Shown piece by piece: positions 465-42,996 of a stretch of DNA of 43,165 nucleotides. Under the pieces are notes generated by a model. The model was not told the origin of the DNA, did no database searches, and saw only the letters and a program-made list of their open reading frames with translations. The translations under genes were made by a program, and so were the position numbers. Every line of letters begins with the position of its first letter. The first letter of the stretch is position 1. The DNA is from an uncultured Candidatus Saccharibacteria bacterium (GTDB taxonomy: Bacteria > Patescibacteriota > Minisyncoccia > JAHIHE01 > DAOWLE01), in assembly GCA_964430135.1 (NCBI GenBank), contig CAYSEG010000008.1:1-43165 (forward strand). Direction: 5' to 3'.

Positions 465-545
465 CAGAAATAAATTTTAAAAACTGGAATTTGGAACTTC
501 ATTGGTGCTTGGAAATTGAAAATTTCAATTATTGCCAGGTTAATT

Positions 546-875
546 ATGTTTACTAAAATCAATAAAACATTTCTCTTTTCGATAATCATTTTCTTGCTGT
601 TGTTTGCTCCTTTCACTTTTGCTCAAATTAATGAACCCACCAATAAACCAATCGCAGATATTTTAGCTGATCTTGTTGACTGGCTTTTAAGTCTGGTGGG
701 CATCATTGCCGTTGCAATGATTATCATCGGAGGAGTTCTTTATTTGACTGCCGGAGGAAACGAGAGACAACTGGAAATGGCTAAAAAAACTTTAATTTAT
801 GCTGTCATTGGTCTATTGATTTGCGGAATTTCTTATGTGATTGTTAAAACAGTAGCGGAGATACTAACGAAGTAG
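546..875 (+). CDS. T4SS pilin-like protein (TrbC/VirB2-like, CPR-type), paralog 1
   Basis: Signal-peptide-like N-terminus (MFTKINKTFLFSIIIFLLLFAPFTFA) and two hydrophobic helices. The core GGVLYLTAGGNERQLEMAKKTL...GISYVIV is shared with the two downstream paralogs. An alternative TTG start lies at 516. Confidence 0.65.
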   Translation: MFTKINKTFLFSIIIFLLLFAPFTFAQINEPTNKPIADILADLVDWLLSLVGIIAVAMIIIGGVLYLTAGGNERQLEMAKKTLIYAVIGLLICGISYVIVKTVAEILTK

Positions 876-963
876 AATTTCAATTTCAGAATTAATTAAA
901 GGTGAAGATTCCGAATTTTACGGTTAGTGATCAATAAGGCAATATCAAAAGTCAAACGTTAAA

Positions 964-1323
964 ATGCAAAATGACAAGTTAAAATTCAAAAATGAATTCA
1001 AGAAAAGGCTTTATAATTTTACTCTCTGTTTAATAGAATTTCTTGATTCTTTACCTAAAGATAATGTTTCAAGAAGAATTGGCGACCAACTATTAAGAAG
1101 CGGGACAAGCATTTTAGGTAATTACATTGAAGGTCAATCAGCCAGTAGTAAGAAAGATTTTACAAATTTCTTTAATACTTCTTTAAAATTAGCTAATGAA
1201 AGTAAATTGTGATTTATTTTACTTCGTGACAGCAAAAGAACCAAGCCTGAAAAAGTAGCTTGGTTCTTGAAAGAATTAGATGAAATCGCTAATATTTTTT
1301 GCTTCGAGCATTCTTACTCTTAG
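964..1323 (+). pseudogene. four-helix-bundle protein with an in-frame TGA at a conserved Trp codon
   Basis: ORF 964..1212 ends ...SKKDFTNFFNTSLKLANESKL*. The same frame continues FILLRDSKRTKPEKVAWFLKELDEIANIF to TAG at 1321-1323, which restores the normal length of about 120 aa for this family. The TGA at 1210-1212 aligns with the ANETxxW Trp (TGG to TGA). TGA is a genuine stop elsewhere in the window (frr, and the ATGA overlap upstream of ftsH). Confidence 0.55.
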
Positions 1324-1389
1324 GGGAAGAAATAATTTTGATTTTTGTATTTTAATTTTTAATTTGAATAATGAAGGGAGGTGAGAAAA

Positions 1390-1752
1390 GTGTTCCAAAT
1401 TTTAAAAAACAAACGAAACAAAATAATACTATCCGCACTTGTATTAGTGATAATGGTTTTTCCTCTTTTAGCCTCGGCTGGTTGGAATATGCCGAATAGG
1501 CCAAATGGCTTACCAGATAAAGAATTAGACGAAGTCATTATGACTATCACTGATTGGGTCTTAGGATTTGCCGGAATAATTGCTATTTTAGTAATTGTCT
1601 ATGGCGGACTCTTATATCTTACTTCAGCCGGTAATGAAGACCAAATGGAAAAAGGCAAAAAAACTCTAATGTGGGGCATTTTAGGTTTGGTAATTATCGG
1701 CATTTCCTATGCGATTGTCAAGGTTATTGTTGAGGTTTGGCTGAAGGCATAA
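1390..1752 (+). CDS. T4SS pilin-like protein (TrbC/VirB2-like), paralog 2
   Basis: GTG start at 1390, preceded by AGGGAGGTGA. The 1381 GTG lies inside the SD. Core GGLLYLTSAGNEDQMEKGKKTL...GISYAIV. Confidence 0.65.
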   Translation: MFQILKNKRNKIILSALVLVIMVFPLLASAGWNMPNRPNGLPDKELDEVIMTITDWVLGFAGIIAILVIVYGGLLYLTSAGNEDQMEKGKKTLMWGILGLVIIGISYAIVKVIVEVWLKA

Positions 1753-1866
1753 TTTCCTTGTCTAATTTCGAAAAATTTGCTATAATTGCAATAGTTGTGG
1801 ATAACTTTCTTATTATTTTCTTATTACTTATAACTTATTATTTATTCAGAGAGGGGGTGAAGAAAA

Positions 1867-2226
1867 GTGAAGACATTAAAAAAGATTGGGAAAATAGCTG
1901 CTCCATTGGTTTTAGTAGGTATTTTTGCTTTAACAACCGGTGTGGCGCTTGCGGCAAATGCATGGGGTCCGCCAGATCAGCCAACAAACGTGCCGAATAA
2001 TCTTGCTAGTGCTATATTAAATGTTACTAACTGGATTTTAGGTTTTATCGGATTGATCGCTGTCTTAATTATTATCTGGGGTGGAGTTTTGTATTTAACT
2101 GCTGCTGGAAATGAAGACCAAACCGCAACCGCCAAGAAGACAATTAGCTGGGGTATTATGGGTTTGGTGATTGCCGGACTTGCTTATGCTATTGTCTATG
2201 TAATTTACACTGTCTGGCTTGGGTAG
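1867..2226 (+). CDS. T4SS pilin-like protein (TrbC/VirB2-like), paralog 3
   Basis: GTG start preceded by GAGGGGGTGA. Signal peptide with ALA-AN cleavage site. Core GGVLYLTAAGNEDQTATAKKTI...GLAYAIV. Confidence 0.65.
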   Translation: MKTLKKIGKIAAPLVLVGIFALTTGVALAANAWGPPDQPTNVPNNLASAILNVTNWILGFIGLIAVLIIIWGGVLYLTAAGNEDQTATAKKTISWGIMGLVIAGLAYAIVYVIYTVWLG

Positions 2227-11999: not shown

Positions 12000-13676
12000 T
12001 TAAAGATGTTTTATCTTCCAGATTTCAGTATCTTCATTTTGATAGGTCTTTTTAAATTTACTATCATTATTTAAGATATTTCTAAGGTTTTGATACTTTG
12101 ATTTACCACCGATAAAAATATACTCGGCTTTGAATTTTTCTTTGATAACTTGAGAAATAGGTTTATCTTTTTGGGGAACTTTGCATTCTGGCAAACTGCA
12201 GATAATTCCTTCTTCGCTGATATGCCGCCAGAGCCAGTATTTCTGAGGGTCGGCTACATACATAAAAGTCGGATCCATTCCTATTATATAATAATTATGA
12301 TGATTATAAAAGAATAATTGCGGAAAATTTCCCCAGTTGGCATTAAAGACAATTGATCCTTGAGGAGTATTTTTATTCAGCCATTCAGCAGCATCTTTGT
12401 ATTGATCATATTTTATTCCCTGATCAATCGCCCATGAAGCATAAGAAATGTTGGCTAATACTAAACCAAGCAGAGTTATCGCGGTGAAAAATTTAATAAT
12501 TTTTTTATTAGTTTGCTTCTTTAGTGTTATTGCGGGCGACTGAAGGGAACGTGGTAATGACAGCCGGGTTAACGAATCTACCCCAAAAGCTCCAAAAAGT
12601 ACAGTAAACGGCACCCAGTATTCAACAAAACGGTTGGCTTTGAGGGTTAGAACGAAAAAGAAAAGAGAAATGATAAAAAGCGAATAGAGAATTACTTTTT
12701 TGTCGTTTCGATCCGCTTGCTCTTTTGTCATTGCGAACGAGCCCGAATAGGGCGAGCGTGGCAATCCCGTATTTTCGCGGGATTGCTTTGTCGTTCCGCT
12801 TCTCGTAATGACAGAGGAGATAATGCCGATCGCAAAACATATCAAAACAAGCAAATTCGCGCGGGCAAAGTTGGCAAGGTCAGCGATTGGAAACCATTCC
12901 ATTCCTACGGGGATAGAGTGGAATATTCCTGCCTTGAAAATTTGTATATAAAGATAATAAAAATTTTTTGGAAAATAAGGATTAATGATTAATCCTCCTA
13001 ATAGTCCAATTCCGGAATAAATTAATAATTTTAGACCTGGCTTCCTGTTAATAAATAAATTTAAGCAGAAGAAAGAAAAAATGAAAAAGAGTAATATTAA
13101 AGAAGCTCCATATGTCCAGGAATACAAGAAAGATAAAACAAAAAGAAGAAAATATTTCTTTTTGATTATAAGATAGAAGCCTAAAAATAAGAATATTATT
13201 GAAATACTTTGGGTTTTAAGTAAATTTAGTCTAAAAATAAAAATTTGAGAGGCGCAGAATAATAAAATTGTCCAGAAAAAAGTAGATTTTATTTTATTTT
13301 GTTTTAATATCCAATAAAAAACTAAAAAGACGAGGCTGTTAAAAATAATTGTGGCTAATTTTGCTCCAAAGATTAAATCTCCATAAGTAAAAGGAACTAA
13401 AAGAATATGGAATAAAAAGTGAAAATCAGAAAAATTGTCTTTCCAGATAGTAAATTGCAGCCAGGGAAAATTATTAATAAACCCCTGTGTTCTTAAAAGA
13501 TAAGCGTTTTTTATGTGATAATAACCATCAGCCCCGGCCAAATTAGGAGTAGAAAATTGTATAAGAGAAAATATGATAAAAAAAAGTATGAAAACAGATA
13601 AATAAGGAATATATTTTTTGATTAGTAAAAAATTCATATTAAGTAAAAAATACTTTGATTTACTTAATTGTATCAT
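12000..13676 (-). CDS. polytopic membrane protein (putative glycosyltransferase) carrying an in-frame repeat-element insertion
   Basis: 558 aa with many TM helices. The loop RSGTTKQSRENTGLPRSPYSGSFAMTKEQADRNDKK is encoded by a GC-rich palindromic element (see repeat 12697-12814). Confidence 0.4.
   Translation of the reverse strand: MIQLSKSKYFLLNMNFLLIKKYIPYLSVFILFFIIFSLIQFSTPNLAGADGYYHIKNAYLLRTQGFINNFPWLQFTIWKDNFSDFHFLFHILLVPFTYGDLIFGAKLATIIFNSLVFLVFYWILKQNKIKSTFFWTILLFCASQIFIFRLNLLKTQSISIIFLFLGFYLIIKKKYFLLFVLSFLYSWTYGASLILLFFIFSFFCLNLFINRKPGLKLLIYSGIGLLGGLIINPYFPKNFYYLYIQIFKAGIFHSIPVGMEWFPIADLANFARANLLVLICFAIGIISSVITRSGTTKQSRENTGLPRSPYSGSFAMTKEQADRNDKKVILYSLFIISLFFFVLTLKANRFVEYWVPFTVLFGAFGVDSLTRLSLPRSLQSPAITLKKQTNKKIIKFFTAITLLGLVLANISYASWAIDQGIKYDQYKDAAEWLNKNTPQGSIVFNANWGNFPQLFFYNHHNYYIIGMDPTFMYVADPQKYWLWRHISEEGIICSLPECKVPQKDKPISQVIKEKFKAEYIFIGGKSKYQNLRNILNNDSKFKKTYQNEDTEIWKIKHL
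12697..12814. repeat. family-A palindromic element (copy A1) inserted in frame inside a CDS
   Basis: TGTCATTGCGAACGAG ... CTCGTAATGACA terminal inverted repeats. Internal hairpins GCCCgaataGGGC and GCAATCCCGtattttcgCGGGATTGC. GC content is far above the flanking sequence. The insertion keeps the reading frame and falls between two TM helices. Confidence 0.65.
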
Positions 13677-16703: not shown

Positions 16704-16732
16704 ATAGTTTAATTTTATTCTTTTAAATCCCA

Positions 16733-16873
16733 ATGACCAAATCCCAAATCTCAAGCCCCAAATCCCAATTATTTTTTATTTTCGGCGTTAGCGATCCCTT
16801 GCGGGACTTATTTGGAATTTATGATTTAGAATTTGGTTGGTCATTGGTCATTGGGGTTTGGGATTTTAAACCT
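16733..16873. repeat. family-E palindromic element, copy E1 (left arm flanking the recombinase gene)
   Basis: AAATCCCAATGACCAAATCCC ... cggcgttagcgatcccttgcgggacttatttgg ... TTGGTCATTGGTCATTGGGGTTTGGGATTT. The ends are mutually inverted. The CCAAATCCCAA sub-repeat is duplicated relative to E2. Confidence 0.75.
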
Positions 16874-16927
16874 TCAGTTAGAAATTTGTCAATTTTTAAT
16901 ATAAAAGTTCAATAGTTCAATTACCTC

Positions 16928-17866
16928 TTATTTCCTTTTCCTCTGTTTTCCATGAAATGCCTGATGGATTTTCTTGAGGTGTTTATCGGTAATATGTGTA
17001 TAGATTTGAGTTGTAGTAATACTAGAATGTCCCATAAGAAGTTGAACCGAGCGAATATCTGCTCCGCCCAAAAGGAGGTCTGTTCCAAAAGCATGCCTTA
17101 ATGAGTGAGGGGTTATTTTTTTGGTAATTCCAGCGCTGGCAGCATATTTTTTAACAATTCTCTGAATACTTCTTGGCGTTAGTCTTAAAGAGGCAGTCTT
17201 ACTGGTTTTTACCGTTTTGATAAATAAAGCAGGATCAGTATCTGTTCGTTTTTCTAAGTATTTTTTGAGAGCTTCTTGAGACTCTTTTGATAAAAAAACA
17301 ATTCGCATTTTGTCTCCTTTGCCTCGAATACTGAATTCTCCTTTTTTTAAATTAATTGTTTCCCGATTTAAAGCTGTTAATTCCGAAACTCTAAGCCCGG
17401 TTGAAAAAAGCAATTCCAGAATAGCTTTATCTCTGAGTATCTGAAGATTTTCTTTATGACGCGGCTTTAATTTTTCTTTAAGAGGAGCCTCAAGAAGTTT
17501 TTCTAATTCTCTTTCTTCTAAAAATTCAATTTCGTGTTCAGGGGTTTTTCCTAATTCTACTTTTTCAGCGGCCAGGCTTTTGATGTCTATTTTTGATAAA
17601 TATTTTAAAAAACCCCTTAGAGCAATAATATGGTAATTTTGGGTAATTCTTTTTAATTTTCTGTTTTTTTCATCATGCCAGCGGTTTAAATATAGTCTGT
17701 AGTCTCTGACTTTCTTTTCTGTAATTTGCGAAGGTTTGTTTATTTTAGCCCACAAGACAAATCGTCTTAAATAATGATCATAGTTTTCAATAGTTTTTTG
17801 ACTTCGGTTTTTCTCAATTTCAAGATACTGGAGGTAGTCGGTGATAAGGGAGTTGATGGGGTTCAT
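16928..17866 (-). CDS. XerC/XerD-family tyrosine site-specific recombinase
   Basis: N-terminal core-binding region (LEIEKNRSQKTIENYDHYLRRF). C-terminal catalytic region with R (GLRVSEL), HSLRHAFGT and LLMGHSSITTTQIYTH (the Tyr nucleophile). Confidence 0.85.
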   Translation of the reverse strand: MNPINSLITDYLQYLEIEKNRSQKTIENYDHYLRRFVLWAKINKPSQITEKKVRDYRLYLNRWHDEKNRKLKRITQNYHIIALRGFLKYLSKIDIKSLAAEKVELGKTPEHEIEFLEERELEKLLEAPLKEKLKPRHKENLQILRDKAILELLFSTGLRVSELTALNRETINLKKGEFSIRGKGDKMRIVFLSKESQEALKKYLEKRTDTDPALFIKTVKTSKTASLRLTPRSIQRIVKKYAASAGITKKITPHSLRHAFGTDLLLGGADIRSVQLLMGHSSITTTQIYTHITDKHLKKIHQAFHGKQRKRK

Positions 17867-17924
17867 ATGGTTTTAATTGATTATATTATGAGTTAACTTT
17901 AGCAAATCTCCTACTTAAAGTTAA

Positions 17925-18047
17925 AAATCTTAAACCCCAGTGACCAATGATCAACCAAATCTTAAATCATAAATTCTAAATAAGTCCCGCAAGGGATCGC
18001 TAACGCCGAAAATAAAAAATAATTGGGATTTGGTCATTGGAATTTTA
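17925..18047. repeat. family-E palindromic element, copy E2 (right arm, inverted relative to E1)
   Basis: Its reverse complement aligns with E1 at about 95% identity over roughly 120 bp, through ...aattattttttattttcggcgttagcgatcccttgcgggacttattt. Confidence 0.75.
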
Positions 18048-18502: not shown

Positions 18503-18637
18503 TGTCATTGCGGCGAGGGGGCTTTAACCCCGAAGCAATCCCATAGGAAAGGATAAGATTTTCATATAAGAAAAAATATAATAATGTATTTATAAGGAAA
18601 TTGCCTCGTCGTCCTTCGGATTCTTTACAATAATGAC
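18503..18637. repeat. family-A palindromic element (copy A2) immediately after the rpsO stop
   Basis: TGTCATTGCGGCGAGGGGGCtttaaCCCCgaagcAATCCC ... GGATTctttacaataATGAC. Same modules as A1 and A3, but a longer AT-rich central loop. Confidence 0.55.
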
Positions 18638-19188: not shown

Positions 19189-19296
19189 ATTTGTTGGTTT
19201 ATATTTATTGGTTTAATCGTCCCGATTGAACCATAAGTTTAGTTTTCTTGGTAATCAAAACATTAAGGTTCAGTCGTGGACGACTGAACCAACGGA
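19189..19296. repeat. family-B double-hairpin element (copy B2)
   Basis: TTGTTGGTTtatatttattGGTTTAATCGtcccGATTGAACC ... aatcaaaacattaa GGTTCAGTCGtggaCGACTGAACCAACGG. Confidence 0.7.
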
Positions 19297-28858: not shown

Positions 28859-28972
28859 AAAAAGTCAAAAGTCAAAAATCAAAATTCAAAAATAAAAGTT
28901 AAAATTCAAAAGTGATTATAAAAATTTTGACTTTTGAATTGAACTTTTGCTTTTGCCTTTTACCTTTTGAAT
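28858..28972. repeat. family-D 7-bp-periodic A-rich imperfect palindrome (copy D1)
   Basis: AAGTCAA|AAGTCAA|AAATCAA|AATTCAA|AAATAAA|AGTTAAA|ATTCAAA - central loop - TTTTGAC|TTTTGAA|TTGAACT|TTTGCTT|TTGCCTT|TTACCTT|TTGAATT. Confidence 0.65.
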
Positions 28973-28981
28973 TAAATATAT

Positions 28982-30091
28982 ATGTTAATCACGATTATTA
29001 TTTTTATTCTAATCTTGGGTCTTCTAATTTTTGTCCACGAATTTGGGCATTTTATTGCGGCTAAACGTGCCGGGGCAAAAGTAGAAGAATTTGGACTTGG
29101 TCTTCCGCCAAGAATTTTTGGTGTAAAAAGAGGCGAGACAATCTATTCATTAAATTGGCTTCCTATTGGCGGATTTTGTAAAATTTTAGGCGAGGGAGGC
29201 GAGAAGAAAAACGACCCTCGGAGTATGGCTTCTAAATCAATCGGACAGCGAGCAAAAATATTTGCCGCGGGCGTGTCAATGAATTTTGCCTTAGCTGTTG
29301 TGCTTTTGATAATAGGTTATACCATTGGGCTTCCATCGATTATTAAAGATGATCAAGTAGGGACTGTTAGAGATCCGAAAGTTCAGATAGTTGAAGTGGT
29401 AAAAGATTCACCAGCCGAAAAAGCTGGGTTAAAAGTAGGCGATGCCATAATAGAGTTAAAAGTTAAAAGTGAAAAGTTAAAAGTTGATGAGGTTGAAAAA
29501 TTTCAGGAATTAATCAAAGCGCATCAAGGTAAAGAAGTTATTTTGGGAATTAAAAGAGGAGATGAAGAGTTGGAAATTGCCGCTGTGCCAAGAGAAAATT
29601 TTCCAGAAGGTCAAGGTCCTTTGGGAATTGGATTAGCCGAGACTGGCATTGTTTCTTATCCAATTCACAAAGCTATTTGGATGGGGATTACCAGTACCAT
29701 TAATTTAACCATAACAATCATTTTTCTTTTTGGAGGTCTTCTTTGGAGTCTGATTTCTACTGGCACGGGAAACATAGATGTGGCCGGACCAGTTGGCATT
29801 GCTGTTTTAACCGGACAGGTAGCCCAGATGGGCTTTATCTATGTTTTGCAGTTTACCGCGCTTATTTCTATTAATCTTGCCCTGATTAATATTTTCCCAT
29901 TTCCGGGATTAGACGGGGGTCATCTTTTGTTTTTGGCTATTGAAAAGATAAAAGGAAGACCAGTCAGGCGAGAGGTTTTGAATACTATCAACAACATCGG
30001 TTTTATTCTTTTGATGCTTTTGATTTTAGCAGTTACTTTTAGAGATTTTGCCAGGTTTGATGTTTGGGAGAAGCTGAAGGGAATTTTTTGA
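28982..30091 (+). CDS. rseP: RIP zinc metalloprotease RseP (site-2 protease)
   Basis: HEFGHF, a PDZ domain (KDSPAEKAGLKVGDAI) and the C-terminal PFPGLDGGHLLF motif. Confidence 0.85.
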   Translation: MLITIIIFILILGLLIFVHEFGHFIAAKRAGAKVEEFGLGLPPRIFGVKRGETIYSLNWLPIGGFCKILGEGGEKKNDPRSMASKSIGQRAKIFAAGVSMNFALAVVLLIIGYTIGLPSIIKDDQVGTVRDPKVQIVEVVKDSPAEKAGLKVGDAIIELKVKSEKLKVDEVEKFQELIKAHQGKEVILGIKRGDEELEIAAVPRENFPEGQGPLGIGLAETGIVSYPIHKAIWMGITSTINLTITIIFLFGGLLWSLISTGTGNIDVAGPVGIAVLTGQVAQMGFIYVLQFTALISINLALINIFPFPGLDGGHLLFLAIEKIKGRPVRREVLNTINNIGFILLMLLILAVTFRDFARFDVWEKLKGIF

Positions 30092-30195: not shown

Positions 30196-30308
30196 GTCAG
30201 TTCAGTCGTCCATTCTGTTAGTTCAATCGTTCACGATTGAGCTACGTGTTTAGTTTTTAGCAATCAAAACATTAAGGTTTAGTCGTGGACGACTAAACCA
30301 ACAGAGGA
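30196..30308. repeat. family-B double-hairpin element (copy B3), abutting the truncated Fic gene
   Basis: cagttcagtcgtcc (partial hairpin), GTTAGTTCAATCGttcaCGATTGAGCTAC, spacer gtttagtttttagcaatcaaaacattaa, then GGTTTAGTCGtggaCGACTAAACCAACAG. Confidence 0.7.
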
Positions 30309-35085: not shown

Positions 35086-35213
35086 TATCATTGCGGGGAG
35101 CCCCTTAAGGGGCGATGAAGTAATCCCGTGCTATTAATACAGGCTTTTTATAAATCTACGGGATTGTTTCATCGTCCTGAAGCATATAGTTCAGGATTTC
35201 TCGCAACAACGGA
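35086..35213. repeat. family-A palindromic element (copy A3) between mreC and mreD
   Basis: TCATTGCGGGGA-GCCCCttaaGGGGC-GATGAAGTAATCCCGT ... ACGGGATTGTTTCATC ... TTCTCGCAACAA. Nested inverted repeats, GC-rich. It ends 3 nt before the mreD ATG. Confidence 0.65.
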
Positions 35214-37690: not shown

Positions 37691-37804
37691 GAAAAAGTCA
37701 AAAATCAAAATTCAAAACTAAAAGTCAAAAATCAAAAGTGAATTATTTGAAACTTTTAACTTTTAACTTGAACTTTTAGCTTTTGAATTTTGCATTTTGA
37801 ATTT
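37691..37804. repeat. family-D 7-bp-periodic A-rich imperfect palindrome (copy D2)
   Basis: AAAGTCA|AAAATCA|AAATTCA|AAACTAA|AAGTCAA|AAATCAA - loop - TTTTAAC|TTTTAAC|TTGAACT|TTTAGCT|TTTGAAT|TTTGCAT|TTTGAAT. Confidence 0.65.
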
Positions 37805-38292: not shown

Positions 38293-40008
38293 ATGAGCTT
38301 AACGGTTATTTTTATAATTTTATCTTTTTTATGGTTTTTACGGACAATTAGAGCCGCGCTTTTTAATGTTTGGATTTGGCAAATTAAAGAATATCGGCTT
38401 GACAGAATGTGGGCTCACTTGAGTATTTTAAGTGGCAAGAGATTATTTCTTAATTGGTTAAATATTATTAAATTAGGACTTCTTGTTCTCTTTCCGTTGT
38501 TTTTACTTCTAAGGCCGTTTCTTTTTTTAGGGTTAGTTATTATTCTCTTTTCTTTAGAATCATTTTTAGGATTCAAAGAATTTCTGGATAAACGATTTTA
38601 TCGGCCGAAATTTACTCCTAAGGCGACGATAATTTTGGCTGGAACTGTTGGAATTGAAATCATTATTGTTTTTTTCTTGACTTATATTTTATTTGAAGGA
38701 GCGTTCTTTGGGTTGAGATTTACTTTATTATCTATAGGTAATTTAAATGAAGTTATACAATATACTTCTATTAGCTGTTTTTCTTTTTTATTTCTAATAT
38801 TGAGTGTTGTTCTGCCGTTAATTGTTTTTCTTTTGGTATTAGTTCTTAACCCGATAACAAAATTATTTAAAGCGAGAACGATTAAAAAAGCAAAAAAGAA
38901 AATAAAGAAATTTTCGAATCTTATTGTAATTGGAATTACTGGAAGCTATGGCAAAACTTCAACAAAAGAATTTTTAGCAACAATTCTAGCTGAGCGTTTT
39001 AATGTTTTAAAAACAATTAAAGCCAATACTGATATTGGCGTGGCGAAAACTATTCTTGAAAAATTAAAACCAGAACATCAAATTTTTGTTGTGGAAATGG
39101 GAGCTTATAAGCGAGGGGAAATTAAGGCAATTTGCGATATTGTAAAGCCGAAGATTGGAGTTTTAACCGGAATCAATGAACAACATTTGGCACTTTTTGG
39201 AGGGTTGGAGAATACGATAAGAGCGAAATTTGAGCTGATTGAGGCGTTGCCGGAAGATGGGTTGGGGGTAATAAACAAAAAGTTAAAAGTTTCCGCCTTC
39301 GTCCCTGCTGGGACTACGACGGACAAGCAAAATTCAAAGTTCAAAGTTGCAGTTAAAAGTTTAAAGTTTTTTTCTGGTAGCGAAAAATCAGATATTTATG
39401 CGAGTGATATAATAATTGAAAAAGATAAAATCAAATTTAAAGTGATAAACGGCGAGGAGAGCGAGGATTTTGAAGTTAGTTTAATCGGCAAGCAGAATGT
39501 TTCAAATATCTTGGCTTGTGTGGCTGTGGCTGAATATTTAGGAATGACTTTAAAAGAAATTTCTAAGGCAGCGAAGAAAATTAAGCCGATTGAGAAAACA
39601 ATGAAAGCTTATCAAGGAATTAATGGAATAACCTTGATTGATGATACTTATAATGCTAATCCGGCCGGTGTTTTGGCGGCTTTGGATTATTTGAAAATTT
39701 GGAAGGGCAGAAAAGCGATTGTGATGCCCTGTTTGATTGAGCTGGGAAGTACGTCAAAGGATGTTCATCAGAGAATCGGCGCGAAAATCGGCGAGAACTG
39801 CGATTTGGCGATTATTACCAAGAAAGAGTGTTATGAAGATATTAAAAAAGCCGCTTGCGAGAACGGGATGGATAAACAGAATATTTTGCTTTCGCAGGAC
39901 CCGCGGGAAATTTTTGAAAAATTAAAAAATTTTAACAAGCCCGAAGATGTGATATTATTAGAAAGCAGGGTTCCTCAGCAATTGATTGATATGTTGGAAT
40001 TTGAATAA
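38293..40008 (+). CDS. murF: MurF-type Mur ligase fused to an N-terminal polytopic membrane domain of about 200 aa
   Basis: Residues 1-200 contain 5-6 TM helices. They are followed by IVIGITGSYGKTSTKEFLATIL (Mur ligase P-loop), GVLTGINEQHLALFGGLENTIRAKFELIE and LIDDTYNANPAGVLAALDYL (MurF C-terminal domain). Confidence 0.75.
   Translation: MSLTVIFIILSFLWFLRTIRAALFNVWIWQIKEYRLDRMWAHLSILSGKRLFLNWLNIIKLGLLVLFPLFLLLRPFLFLGLVIILFSLESFLGFKEFLDKRFYRPKFTPKATIILAGTVGIEIIIVFFLTYILFEGAFFGLRFTLLSIGNLNEVIQYTSISCFSFLFLILSVVLPLIVFLLVLVLNPITKLFKARTIKKAKKKIKKFSNLIVIGITGSYGKTSTKEFLATILAERFNVLKTIKANTDIGVAKTILEKLKPEHQIFVVEMGAYKRGEIKAICDIVKPKIGVLTGINEQHLALFGGLENTIRAKFELIEALPEDGLGVINKKLKVSAFVPAGTTTDKQNSKFKVAVKSLKFFSGSEKSDIYASDIIIEKDKIKFKVINGEESEDFEVSLIGKQNVSNILACVAVAEYLGMTLKEISKAAKKIKPIEKTMKAYQGINGITLIDDTYNANPAGVLAALDYLKIWKGRKAIVMPCLIELGSTSKDVHQRIGAKIGENCDLAIITKKECYEDIKKAACENGMDKQNILLSQDPREIFEKLKNFNKPEDVILLESRVPQQLIDMLEFE
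39278..39372. repeat. heptamer-flanked GC-core palindromic element inserted in frame in murF
   Basis: AAAAGTT|AAAAGTT-tccgccttcGTCCCtgctGGGACtacgacggacaagc-AAAATTC|AAAGTTC|AAAGTTG|CAGTTAA|AAGTTTA|AAGTTTT. It encodes KKLKVSAFVPAGTTTDKQNSKFKVAVKSLKFF. The core resembles the family-E core atCCCTTGCGGGACt. Confidence 0.55.
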
Positions 40009-40051: not shown

Positions 40052-40279
40052 TCATTCGCCGCGCTGTGTGCCTGTTGTGCACGATGCACGCACAACCCAG
40101 ACCGACAAGACGAGAGCAATTACTAATGCTATCCAGGGCAATAATAGCCCTGTAAGCACTGCATCCCTTGTGATTAGAAAAACTAGTCCGCTGGCAGCCA
40201 TCGTCCATACAATTATATCTACTAACAATGTCACAGCGGCTTTCCAGATTTCCCATGGATCGTTTGGTTTATACTTCAT
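40052..40279 (-). CDS. small (75 aa) two-TM hydrophobic protein encoded in a GC-rich patch
   Basis: AGGAGGTGA SD 8 nt upstream of the ATG. A TTGACA -35 box lies about 70 nt upstream. The unit has its own terminator. GC content is far above the window average. Confidence 0.45.
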   Translation of the reverse strand: MKYKPNDPWEIWKAAVTLLVDIIVWTMAASGLVFLITRDAVLTGLLLPWIALVIALVLSVWVVRASCTTGTQRGE

Positions 40280-40502
40280 TATTTTTTCACCTCCTATTTT
40301 TTCCTTCTTTGTCTAGATCTTATCAGATATTATAGAGTTGTCAAGAGCAAAGATTGCTGGCTCTATAGTCCTGAAGGGCCGTGGAGCTTGAATGCAAACC
40401 TGTATCATTTTCGAAATTATTCCTATAATATAAGCGTAAGTCTTGCATTTTGGCTCCATAGGGCTATCGCCACTATGGAGCCAGCGAAGATATAAAAGAT
40501 AT

Positions 40503-41949: not shown

Positions 41950-42996
41950 ATGCTGATAAAAGAAATTAAAAACAAAGATTACTGGGAAAACTTTCTTTTA
42001 TCCCAGCCAGAACCGTCTTTCCTACAATCCTGGTATTGGGGCAAGTTCCACGAATCGCTCGGCGATAAAATTTTTCGCTTGGGAATTTTTGACAACGAAG
42101 AAATTGTCGGCGCGGCTTTGATAATTAGAGTTTTGGCGCGGCGAGGATCATTCCTTTTTTGCCCTTATGGACCAATAATAAGTCAAAAGTCAAAAGTCAA
42201 AAGTCAAAAGCGTAATTCAAAATGCAGAAGTATTGAGATTTTGACAAATTATTTGAAAGATTTAGCGAGAAAAGAAAAGTGCTGTTTTCTTAGAATTAGT
42301 CCGAATTGGGAGAGAAGCGAGAAGGATATAAAAATTTTCAAGGATTTAGGATTTAGGGATGCGCCGATTCATCTTAAGCCGGAAATAACTTGGCTTTTGG
42401 ATATTAGACCGAGCGAAGATGAAATTTTGATGGGAATGCGAAAAACTACTCGGAATTTAATCAGAAGAGGATATAAAGAAAATATCCAGATTATTAAAAG
42501 CGAAAATCCGGATGATTTGGGCGAATTTTATGAAATTTATCAGAAAACCGCTAAACGGCAAAATTTTGTTCCGTTCTCCAAAGAATATTTAAAAAAAGAA
42601 TTTAGTGTTTTTGTTGGAGAAAAAAAAGTCAGTTTATTTTTCGCCAAGCATAAAGATAAACTACTGGCAGCTTCTTTTTTTATTTTTTATGGACGTCAAG
42701 GTTTTTATCATCATAGCGCTTCTTTGCCGAATACTTCTAAAATTTCAACTTCTTATCTTTTACTTTGGAAAGCAATTCAGGAAGCGAAGAAAAGAAATTG
42801 CGAAATTTTCAATTTTTGGGGTATTGCCCCGAAAAATAAACCAAAGCATCCTTGGCAAGGTTTAACTTTTTTTAAAAAAGGTTTTGGCGGTTATCAAAAA
42901 GATTTAATTCATGCCCAAGATTTGCCAATGGATAGGCGATATTGGTTAAATTGGGTGGTTGAAACTTTCCGAAGAATTAAACGAGGATATTCATAA
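41950..42996 (+). CDS. FemAB-family peptidoglycan interpeptide-bridge aminoacyltransferase
   Basis: SFLQSWYWGKF ... FLFCPYGPI ... and C-terminal ...FFKKGFGG matches the FemAB-family (PF02388) architecture as I recall it; this family is commonly annotated in CPR bacteria. Confidence 0.75.
   Translation: MLIKEIKNKDYWENFLLSQPEPSFLQSWYWGKFHESLGDKIFRLGIFDNEEIVGAALIIRVLARRGSFLFCPYGPIISQKSKVKSQKRNSKCRSIEILTNYLKDLARKEKCCFLRISPNWERSEKDIKIFKDLGFRDAPIHLKPEITWLLDIRPSEDEILMGMRKTTRNLIRRGYKENIQIIKSENPDDLGEFYEIYQKTAKRQNFVPFSKEYLKKEFSVFVGEKKVSLFFAKHKDKLLAASFFIFYGRQGFYHHSASLPNTSKISTSYLLLWKAIQEAKKRNCEIFNFWGIAPKNKPKHPWQGLTFFKKGFGGYQKDLIHAQDLPMDRRYWLNWVVETFRRIKRGYS
42178..42245. repeat. in-frame (AGTCAAA)4 heptamer array with a partner arm inside femAB
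   Basis: aagtcaaaagtcaaaagtcaaaagtcaaaag ... attgagattttgac, encoding SQKSKVKSQKRNSKCRSIEILT. Same unit as the family-D intergenic repeats. Confidence 0.55.

Follow-up and report, generated by a model that had tools for sequence, protein, structure and literature searches.

How did a GC-rich hairpin come to lie, in frame and between heptamer repeats, within a Mur ligase gene, and how much of the surrounding repeat came with it? The window, by which we mean the whole stretch of 43,165 nucleotides that was analysed, has a GC content of 33% and carries a cell-envelope gene set comprising mreB, mreC, mreD, a PBP2-type transpeptidase, greA, a MurF-like ligase, a DegT aminotransferase and a FemAB-type transferase. 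Within the ligase gene, positions 39278-39372 read AAAAGTT AAAAGTT / TCCGCC TTC GTCCC TGCT GGGAC TAC GACGGA / CAAGC AAAATTC AAAGTTC AAAGTTG CAGTT AAAAGTT TAAAGTT TTTT. A sequence-only reading had taken this region for a single element of about 95 nt, composed of two heptamers, a core and six more heptamers, that adds about 31 codons to the gene. The features that enter into the analysis are the following.

38293-40008, plus strand: gene for a MurF-like Mur ligase of 571 aa (Pfam, PDB sequence and fold matches).
39278-39291, plus strand: two AAAAGTT units coding KKLKV, resident heptamer-periodic coding DNA outside the insertion (aligned with loci L001 and L002).
39292-39333, plus strand: in-frame insertion of 42 nt (14 codons), SAFVPAGTTTDKQN (blastn break, MAFFT gap, protein alignments).
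39292-39323, plus strand: GC-rich nested palindrome of 32 nt (folding; perfect in L003 and L009).
39324-39372, plus strand: period-7 tract CAAAATT CAAAGTT CAAAGTT GCAGTT AAAAGTT TAAAGTT TTTTT, coding DKQNSKFKVAVKSLKFF (Tandem Repeats Finder, autocorrelation).

The host gene is MurF-like and not a canonical murF. Pfam places Mur_ligase_M at residues 215-413 (5.6e-37) and Mur_ligase_C at residues 440-556 (4.5e-13) of the 571-aa protein, and MurF is the top match among PDB sequences (4cvk at 5e-39) as well as among folds (4qf5, 4cvk), so that the protein, with its central and C-terminal Mur ligase domains and MurF as nearest relative, belongs with MurF. It lacks the canonical N-terminal UDP-binding domain. 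Residues 1-205 have no Pfam match at all, residues 3-205 are helices in the structure model, and the N-terminal part of about 205 aa is predicted to be a polytopic membrane domain that stands in place of the usual one; a membrane N-terminal domain is also found in Patescibacteria homologs. Both Mur ligase domains are intact. The reading frame 38293-40008 is unbroken, as the sequence-only reading had held, and the peptide which that reading gave for the region is correct. The feature is not an artefact, because the identical 571-aa protein is present on three independent assemblies; an assembly artefact is likewise ruled out by the occurrence of the insert in at least five independent assemblies.

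To what extent the region is inserted can be read from the orthologous DNA of L001 (protein P0003), the nearest core-less relative, which was compared by blastn, MAFFT and protein alignments. There the DNA reads AAGTTGA AAGTTGA AAGTGAA AAGTTGA AAGTGAA AAGTTTG AAATTTT, coding KLKVESEKLKVKSLKFF, and the heptamer-coded NSKLKVESEKLKVKSLKFFS runs uninterrupted at canonical length. The blastn alignment breaks at window 39291/39329, MAFFT opens one 42-nt gap in L001 opposite window 39292-39333, and the protein alignments concur; because the flanks are repetitive, the edges of the insertion are ambiguous by a few nucleotides. The AAAAGTT pair of the window aligns with AAGTTGAAAGTT (KLKV) in L001 and L002. 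On the other side, the resident sequence starts at NSKFKV within the period-7 tract, and the final heptamer units code the conserved strand LKFFS, a predicted beta-strand at 356-361; the motifs NSKFKV / KLKxIKF and LKxxKF(F/Y)S recur in homologs with no more than about 46% identity. The segment from FELIE to LxGxxN measures 70 aa in L001, 72-77 aa in ordinary MurFs and 84 aa in the window, which is 7-12 aa longer than in canonical MurFs. Judged from these alignments, the heptamer-like flanks are resident coding sequence and not insertion, and the proposed gain of about 31 codons shrinks to exactly 42 extra nucleotides, or 14 codons, relative to L001.

The inserted hairpin is larger than had been described. 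The sequence-only reading had correctly located the AAAAGTT pair and the hairpin GTCCCTGCTGGGAC at 39301-39314; the latter is real, and its GTCCC-TGCT-GGGAC is the inner stem (39301-39305 with 39310-39314, loop TGCT at 39306-39309) of a nested palindrome. The outer stem TCCGCC/GACGGA pairs 39292-39297 with 39318-39323, with a single C.A mismatch that stems from a derived A at 39319, and is separated from the inner one by 3x3 internal loops, TTC and TAC. The window core folds with a z-score of -2.6, its perfect counterpart in L003 with one of -5.1, and the GC content of the core is 66% vs 33% in the remainder of the gene. The heptamers proposed 3' of the core are also real: Tandem Repeats Finder detects 6.0 copies of a period-7 unit, with 77% matches, at 39328-39368, and the lag-7 identity of 0.66 for 39325-39372 was reached by 0 of 5000 shuffles and lies in the top 0.5% of 48-nt windows, so that the flanking tract consists of tandem 7-nt units beyond chance. 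The claimed likeness of the core to the family-E core (16794, 17984) was rejected as homology, with 10/14 identical bases, a chance level that 14 other sites in the window reach equally well.

A relationship to other hairpins was found instead outside the window. Hairpins of the form TCCGCC-N3-GGCGGA (15 nt) occur about once per 6-7 kb in L001, L002, L003 and L005, singly, doubly or in triplicate; three murF positions carry them, as do a PHP-domain gene and spacers. In the PHP-domain gene the hairpin is single in L002 and double in L001, and it reads KLKVSAY/KLKISAF, comparable with KLKVSAF in the window. The window core and the L002 core share the foot TCCGCC/GGCGGA, the build of stem, internal loop and stem, and the left junction AAAAGTT|TCCGCC; from base composition, the chance expectation of the 12-nt foot in 56 kb of 33%-GC DNA is about 1e-4. 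In the window we found no second TCCGCC...GGCGGA hairpin of this kind. The idea that the core itself is a dispersed repeat was rejected, the exact core being confined to murF orthologs across the collections searched: a scan with the 20-mer TTCRTCCCTGCTGGGAYTAC gave 0 matches in 185,579 species genomes and 5 in metagenome contigs, comprising 2 murF orthologs and 3 chance matches in 55%-GC contigs, and approximate matching across the 1.07 Mb of fetched loci brought up no further core. With the exact core not dispersed and no other member in the window, foot and junction are the only ties to a mobile family. AAAAGTT as a strict target site of TCCGCC hairpins was rejected as well, as it stands on the left at only 3/7 independent sites.

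The same position has received other sequences in other Parcubacteria, for which the murF loop site is a hot spot of GC-rich palindromes or lineage-specific heptamer arrays. The inserts found at the site are listed below.

L002: two tandem TCCGCC-N3-GGCGGA hairpins.
L006: CCGAAGG-AGAA-CCTTCGG.
L013: GCCCCG...CGGGGC.
L005: an element of about 100 nt, GTCATTGCGAG...CTCGCAATGAC.

The heptamers on either side of the L006 and L013 cores are of other types, AATTTTC and CAAATCT, and P0020 shows at the same site a plain tandem expansion, QKTQN x3. In most of 96 homologs, 25-38 aa separate the invariant Asn328 from the DI motif; the longest versions (P0004, P0007, P0009, P0039, P0040, P0045, P0104) carry unrelated Pro-, Gly-, Arg- and Ala-rich stretches encoded by GC-rich DNA, and lineage-specific insertions in the ligase part of the 96 homologs group after residues 337-365 and after 442. 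The L002 core, TCCGCCTACGGCGGA TCCGCCGAAGGCGGA, sits 14 nt to the 3' side of where the window core lies, and its reading frame differs, giving FPPTADPPKAE vs SAFVPAG in the window; therefore, what the two share is DNA and not protein, which points to independent events at the DNA level. The murF insertions of the window and of L002 are both 42 nt long (6 x 7). These equal lengths could reflect one older event or a length constraint instead of independent events.

AlphaFold models built on the 96-sequence alignment locate the insert in the protein. The MurF fold is kept, and the mean pLDDT is 88.8 in the window protein as compared with 89.5 in P0003, which lacks the core. The model of the window protein has a coil at residues 329-355 (pLDDT 53-60) that joins the strands 324-328 and 356-361, where the P0003 model has a link of 13 residues (pLDDT 75-90). 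The insert is thus modelled, at low confidence, as stretching an inter-strand link of the central domain from 13 to 27 residues. The expectation that the extra residues would map to a loop is borne out to the extent that the model shows a low-confidence coil between two beta-strands. In the comparison with relatives that had also been proposed as a check, the insert is absent from some orthologs, and its residues were not found conserved where the DNA repeat is missing.

Period-7 arrays are a genome-wide property, with a specific enrichment of period 7 over the periods 4-12, as the following densities indicate (regions per 10 kb, first for period 7 and then for the other periods of this range).

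Window: 2.1 for period 7, no more than 0.46 for the others.
Close relatives: 1.3 for period 7, no more than 0.30 for the others.
Other Patescibacteria loci: 0.32 for period 7, no more than 0.25 for the others.
MurF loci from outside the candidate phyla: 0.07 for period 7, no more than 0.09 for the others.

Heptamer repeats of this sort are represented among cyanobacteria by the STRR heptamers. The murF flank and many spacer arrays of the window likewise consist of tandem 7-nt units, and they belong in this respect with heptanucleotide simple sequence repeats (SSRs). They differ from them in having several unit types (AAAAGTC, AATTTTC, AAATCCC), in spacer arrays that often form inverted pairs and in a placement within essential genes at a recurrent loop; as a pure array would meet stop codons, copies in coding DNA are either short or interrupted. 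The arrays of the window lie mostly in spacers, some of which hold composites of heptamer array and GC core (e.g., 16725-16888). In at least 10 species, no other part of the gene is as 7-periodic as the murF site, whose units are lineage-specific and include one perfect (AAGTACC)x4. Copy number does not vary between close strains, the lengths being equal in the window, L003, L004 and L009; between species, both units and lengths differ. Among long SSRs with 5-11-nt units, as described by Mrazek et al., heptanucleotides are the commonest in prokaryotes, with polymerase slippage as the proposed cause, and TAACTGA repeats are known from Beggiatoaceae and cyanobacteria (PMC4679880).

Taken together, we consider it probable, although by no means secure, that the murF insert is a neutral in-frame insertion similar to the repetitive extragenic palindromes (REPs) and the Rickettsia palindromic elements (RPEs). 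A GC-rich nested palindrome (a 32-nt core and about 10 nt more, making 42 nt) would have entered, at the DNA level, an AT-rich, slippage-prone heptanucleotide tract that codes the link between two central-domain beta-strands of the MurF-like ligase. The insert has the foot TCCGCC...GGCGGA in common with the 15-nt hairpin family, and likewise the left junction and the arrangement of a 6-bp outer stem, a 3x3 internal loop, a 5-bp inner stem and a 4-nt loop; members of that family, often in tandem, are dispersed over genes and spacers of related Parcubacteria. The route would be a REP-like mobilisation or the copying of another hairpin. The insert would survive because it is divisible by three in length, contains no stop codon and sits in a loop that accepts extra residues, and the 42 nt would be translated as about 14 disordered residues. 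We infer that it performs no function itself and is selfish or neutral DNA of the REP/RPE kind. The comparisons establish its presence and absence in orthologs, independent insertions at the same site, its position between two strands and the accumulation of mutations in its stems.

An unlikely alternative is that the palindrome was made locally, through template switching or snap-back synthesis while the slippage-prone tract was replicated or repaired, and is not a copy from a mobile family. Such an origin would agree with the confinement of the exact core to murF orthologs in all collections searched, with the heptanucleotide microsatellite tract, a type prone to polymerase slippage (PMC4679880), and with the tandem expansion in P0020. 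It leaves aside, however, that foot, architecture and the AAAAGTT|TCCGCC junction are common to hairpins at unrelated loci of related genomes, with the small chance expectation for the foot given above, and that a segment of 66% GC is hard to draw from surroundings of 33% GC.

We regard it as more doubtful still that the whole stretch of about 95 nt, heptamers and core together, is one composite mobile element. The composites in the window spacers, the different heptamer flanks of the L006 and L013 cores and the lineage-specific units at the murF site would all suit this reading. Against it, the flanks are resident coding DNA in core-less relatives, the motifs on the 3' side recur in distant homologs and the last units code a conserved beta-strand, the difference to L001 amounts to 42 nt and not about 95 nt, and TCCGCC hairpins stand at other loci without heptamer flanks.

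A broader proposal is that Parcubacteria harbour an undescribed modular class of repeats, in which lineage-specific heptamer arrays host small GC hairpins with a conserved foot that are generated or mobilised by a hairpin-recognising enzyme and insert time and again in a small set of loops in essential proteins such as the MurF-like ligase. We hold this to be rather improbable; if true, it would provide a built-in source of loop-length variation, or antisense terminators.

A function of the hairpin as RNA or DNA, be it as antisense terminator, mRNA stabiliser, pause site or protein-binding site, is very improbable. The minus-strand fold does beat shuffles (-22.5 kcal/mol, z -2.1), AACUUUUAACUUUUUG follows on that strand, and the sense strand has no T-run after the hairpin. 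The A-rich sense and T-rich antisense flank is, however, the mere composition of a lysine-rich coding strand, Rfam gave no match at E<=1, and an intrinsic terminator was rejected, given that the consensus scan calls neither strand and the GC stem has no adjoining U-run (sense tail CAAGCAAAAUUC). Moreover, the hairpin is missing from close orthologs and its stems change faster than the flanks. The palindrome is perfect in L003 and L009; derived stem changes are the A at 39319 in the window and those at 39296 and 39301 in L004. All three are G:C>A:T, lie in stems and are nonsynonymous, and over 716 nt the window and L004 show 14 differences, 3 of which belong to the 32-nt core (P=0.015). Different changes retain wobble pairing on different strands, and none is compensatory. 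This substitution pattern looks like that of a decaying passenger, and not like that of a selected RNA or DNA structure or peptide. Equally remote is an adaptive loop, selected for a new interaction or regulation of the membrane-anchored ligase: at least four sequence variants of the lineage, and a mosaic relative too, have kept the insert in frame, but all three core substitutions change the peptide, the pLDDT is only 53-60, and the site bears unrelated peptides in other lineages and nothing in many homologs.

Of the systems that the probable REP/RPE-like insertion resembles, the RPEs were reportedly introduced by Ogata et al. in 2000. RPEs are palindromic DNA lying in frame within Rickettsia housekeeping genes, translated and reported to be compatible with fold and function (PMC10969869). 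The murF insert resembles them as an in-frame, translated palindrome in a housekeeping gene that is present in some orthologs and absent from others, with a stable hairpin and, according to the model, a fold-compatible position; RPEs are also regarded as selfish. They measure about 100-150 bp, however, and form defined multi-copy families in each genome, compared with 42 nt (core 32 nt) and one copy of the core in the 43-kb window. RPEs code a conserved peptide, whereas the murF insert is tied to a family by a 6-bp foot only, and its host is a Patescibacteria bacterium and not Rickettsia. GTAG- or CGTC-tagged REPs are palindromes of 20-40 bp, often in dimers and at times wholly inside ORFs (Di Nocera et al. 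2013, PMC3733652). The imperfect nested palindrome of 32 nt fits this size, and the related TCCGCC family has tandem double or triple hairpins inside genes. The terminal tag is missing, since CGTC (39299-39302) and the minus-strand GTAG are internal and the ends are TCCG and CGGA; the window shows neither further copies nor dimers, and the related TCCGCC hairpins of L001-L003 and L005 stand singly and in tandem. The insert therefore belongs formally to neither RPEs nor REPs, owing to its length, terminal tag and copy number. MITEs are small non-autonomous elements that end up translated within host ORFs as well, such as QMITE1 of Coxiella burnetii, which creates in-frame fusions (named in PMC10969869). 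Their hallmarks are terminal inverted repeats, as which the murF stems could count, target-site duplications, any of which would here be masked by the AAAGTT-type repeats on both flanks, and a cognate IS. The murF feature lacks the array of spaced repeats that marks TIGR arrays. By analogy, then, the insert is best seen as a small counterpart of the known RPEs and not as a new kind of system, and it reveals no new molecular mechanism.

The literature searched yielded no report of comparable inserts from candidate-phyla bacteria. Rickettsia is the best-known source of in-frame palindromic selfish DNA, and intragenic REPs have been reported from several other species; to these, essential genes of Patescibacteria can now be added. 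Such inserts inflate and blur alignments and domain models of candidate-phyla proteins, and they flag positions open to loop engineering. For annotators, Pro/Gly/Arg-rich stretches in AT-rich genomes can be repeat-derived. Among window ORFs of at least 90 aa (43 kb), no HUH/RAYT or IS transposase was found. The sole find of a recombination type in the window is a tyrosine recombinase, which is flanked by another repeat.

The MurF-like protein has a second insertion hot spot, which follows residue 442 (window ~39618) and lies just N-terminal to the LIDDTYNAN motif; there, at least 10 of the 96 homologs carry TCCGCC-type hairpins (TCCGCC-N3-GGCGGA) or other GC-rich sequence. The hairpins occur singly to triply, with the peptides SLPAAGTGAK and FPLTADPQKAEAK, and the other GC-rich inserts read RHPPTV and RPPARRG. 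Example sites in the loci of two relatives are:

L002:11273-11322, insert at the post-442 hot spot
L005:2343-2390, insert at the post-442 hot spot

A different element, a palindrome roughly 90 nt long (GTCATTACGAG...CGCAATGAC), lies at window 12715-12815 and reads in frame as SVITRSGTTKQSRENTGLPRSPYSGSFAMT; it is contained in an ORF of 558 aa (12000..13676, reverse strand) that gave no Pfam match. Its family also occupies the murF hot spot in the loop segment after residues 337-365, both in L005 (protein P0007) and in the homolog P0039.

The murF gene of L003, one of the loci with the perfect window-type palindrome, is a mosaic, as revealed by comparison of L003:7641-9491 with window 38881-39700. 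Its central ~700 nt, insert included, share 99-100% identity with the window, whereas both ends reach only about 50%, and its C-terminal part shows likeness to the clade of P0003, a homolog from a core-less relative. Either different lineages have recombined here or the assembly is chimeric.

In the MurF-like protein, a polytopic membrane domain (residues 1-205, window 38293-38910) stands in for the usual MurF N-terminal domain. This domain is kept across the 95 aligned Patescibacteria homologs, with W29, Y34, P105, T108 and K110 as invariant residues. We speculate that the substrate of such a membrane-anchored MurF-type ligase may differ from the usual one and could be linked to a lipid. Between this gene and DegT, a hydrophobic ORF of 75 aa is encoded on the opposite strand (40052-40279, reverse), which is annotated as a gene in other assemblies; part of the spacer (40263-40344) retains 82% identity in L001, the core-less relative.

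Heptamer arrays were also located in frame within two other genes:

29454-29485, AGTTAAA x4.6, RseP/M50 protease gene, reading ELKVKSEKLKV
42180-42210, AAGTCAA x4.4, FemAB-type gene, reading SQKSKVKSQK

The array in the FemAB-type gene adds no residues, since it takes the place of a variable stretch comparable in length. Relative to periods 4-12, period-7 tandem arrays show a specific enrichment in the genome of the window; across the Patescibacteria loci among L001-L053, the fetched relatives and homologs, this enrichment is weaker, and arrays are rare in loci from outside the candidate phyla. Spacer arrays in the window often form inverted pairs, such as 28860-28913 with 28925-28970 and 37693-37737 with 37751-37804.

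A tyrosine recombinase gene (16928..17866, reverse strand; Phage_integrase match, 7e-41) is flanked on both sides by 143-nt inverted repeats (16746-16888 and 17903-18045) that are 87% complementary. Each repeat holds a GC core, termed family E in the sequence-only reading, amid AAATCCC and TTGGTCA heptamers, the latter also being the heptamer that is repeated in STRR2 of cyanobacteria.

Three T4SS pilin-like genes (PF18895) with a common 180-nt repeat are arranged in tandem at window 516-2226, the first two parted by a stretch of ~500 nt (876-1380) with heptamer arrays. Two additional families of GC-rich hairpin repeats, GGTTCAGTCG...CGACTGAACC and CATTGCGG(C/G)GAG...CCCC, occur in the window, in no case within one of the listed ORFs (90 aa or longer):

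2705-2746, 19208-19296 and 30254-30305, GC-rich hairpins
18506-18537 and 35088-35120, also GC-rich hairpins
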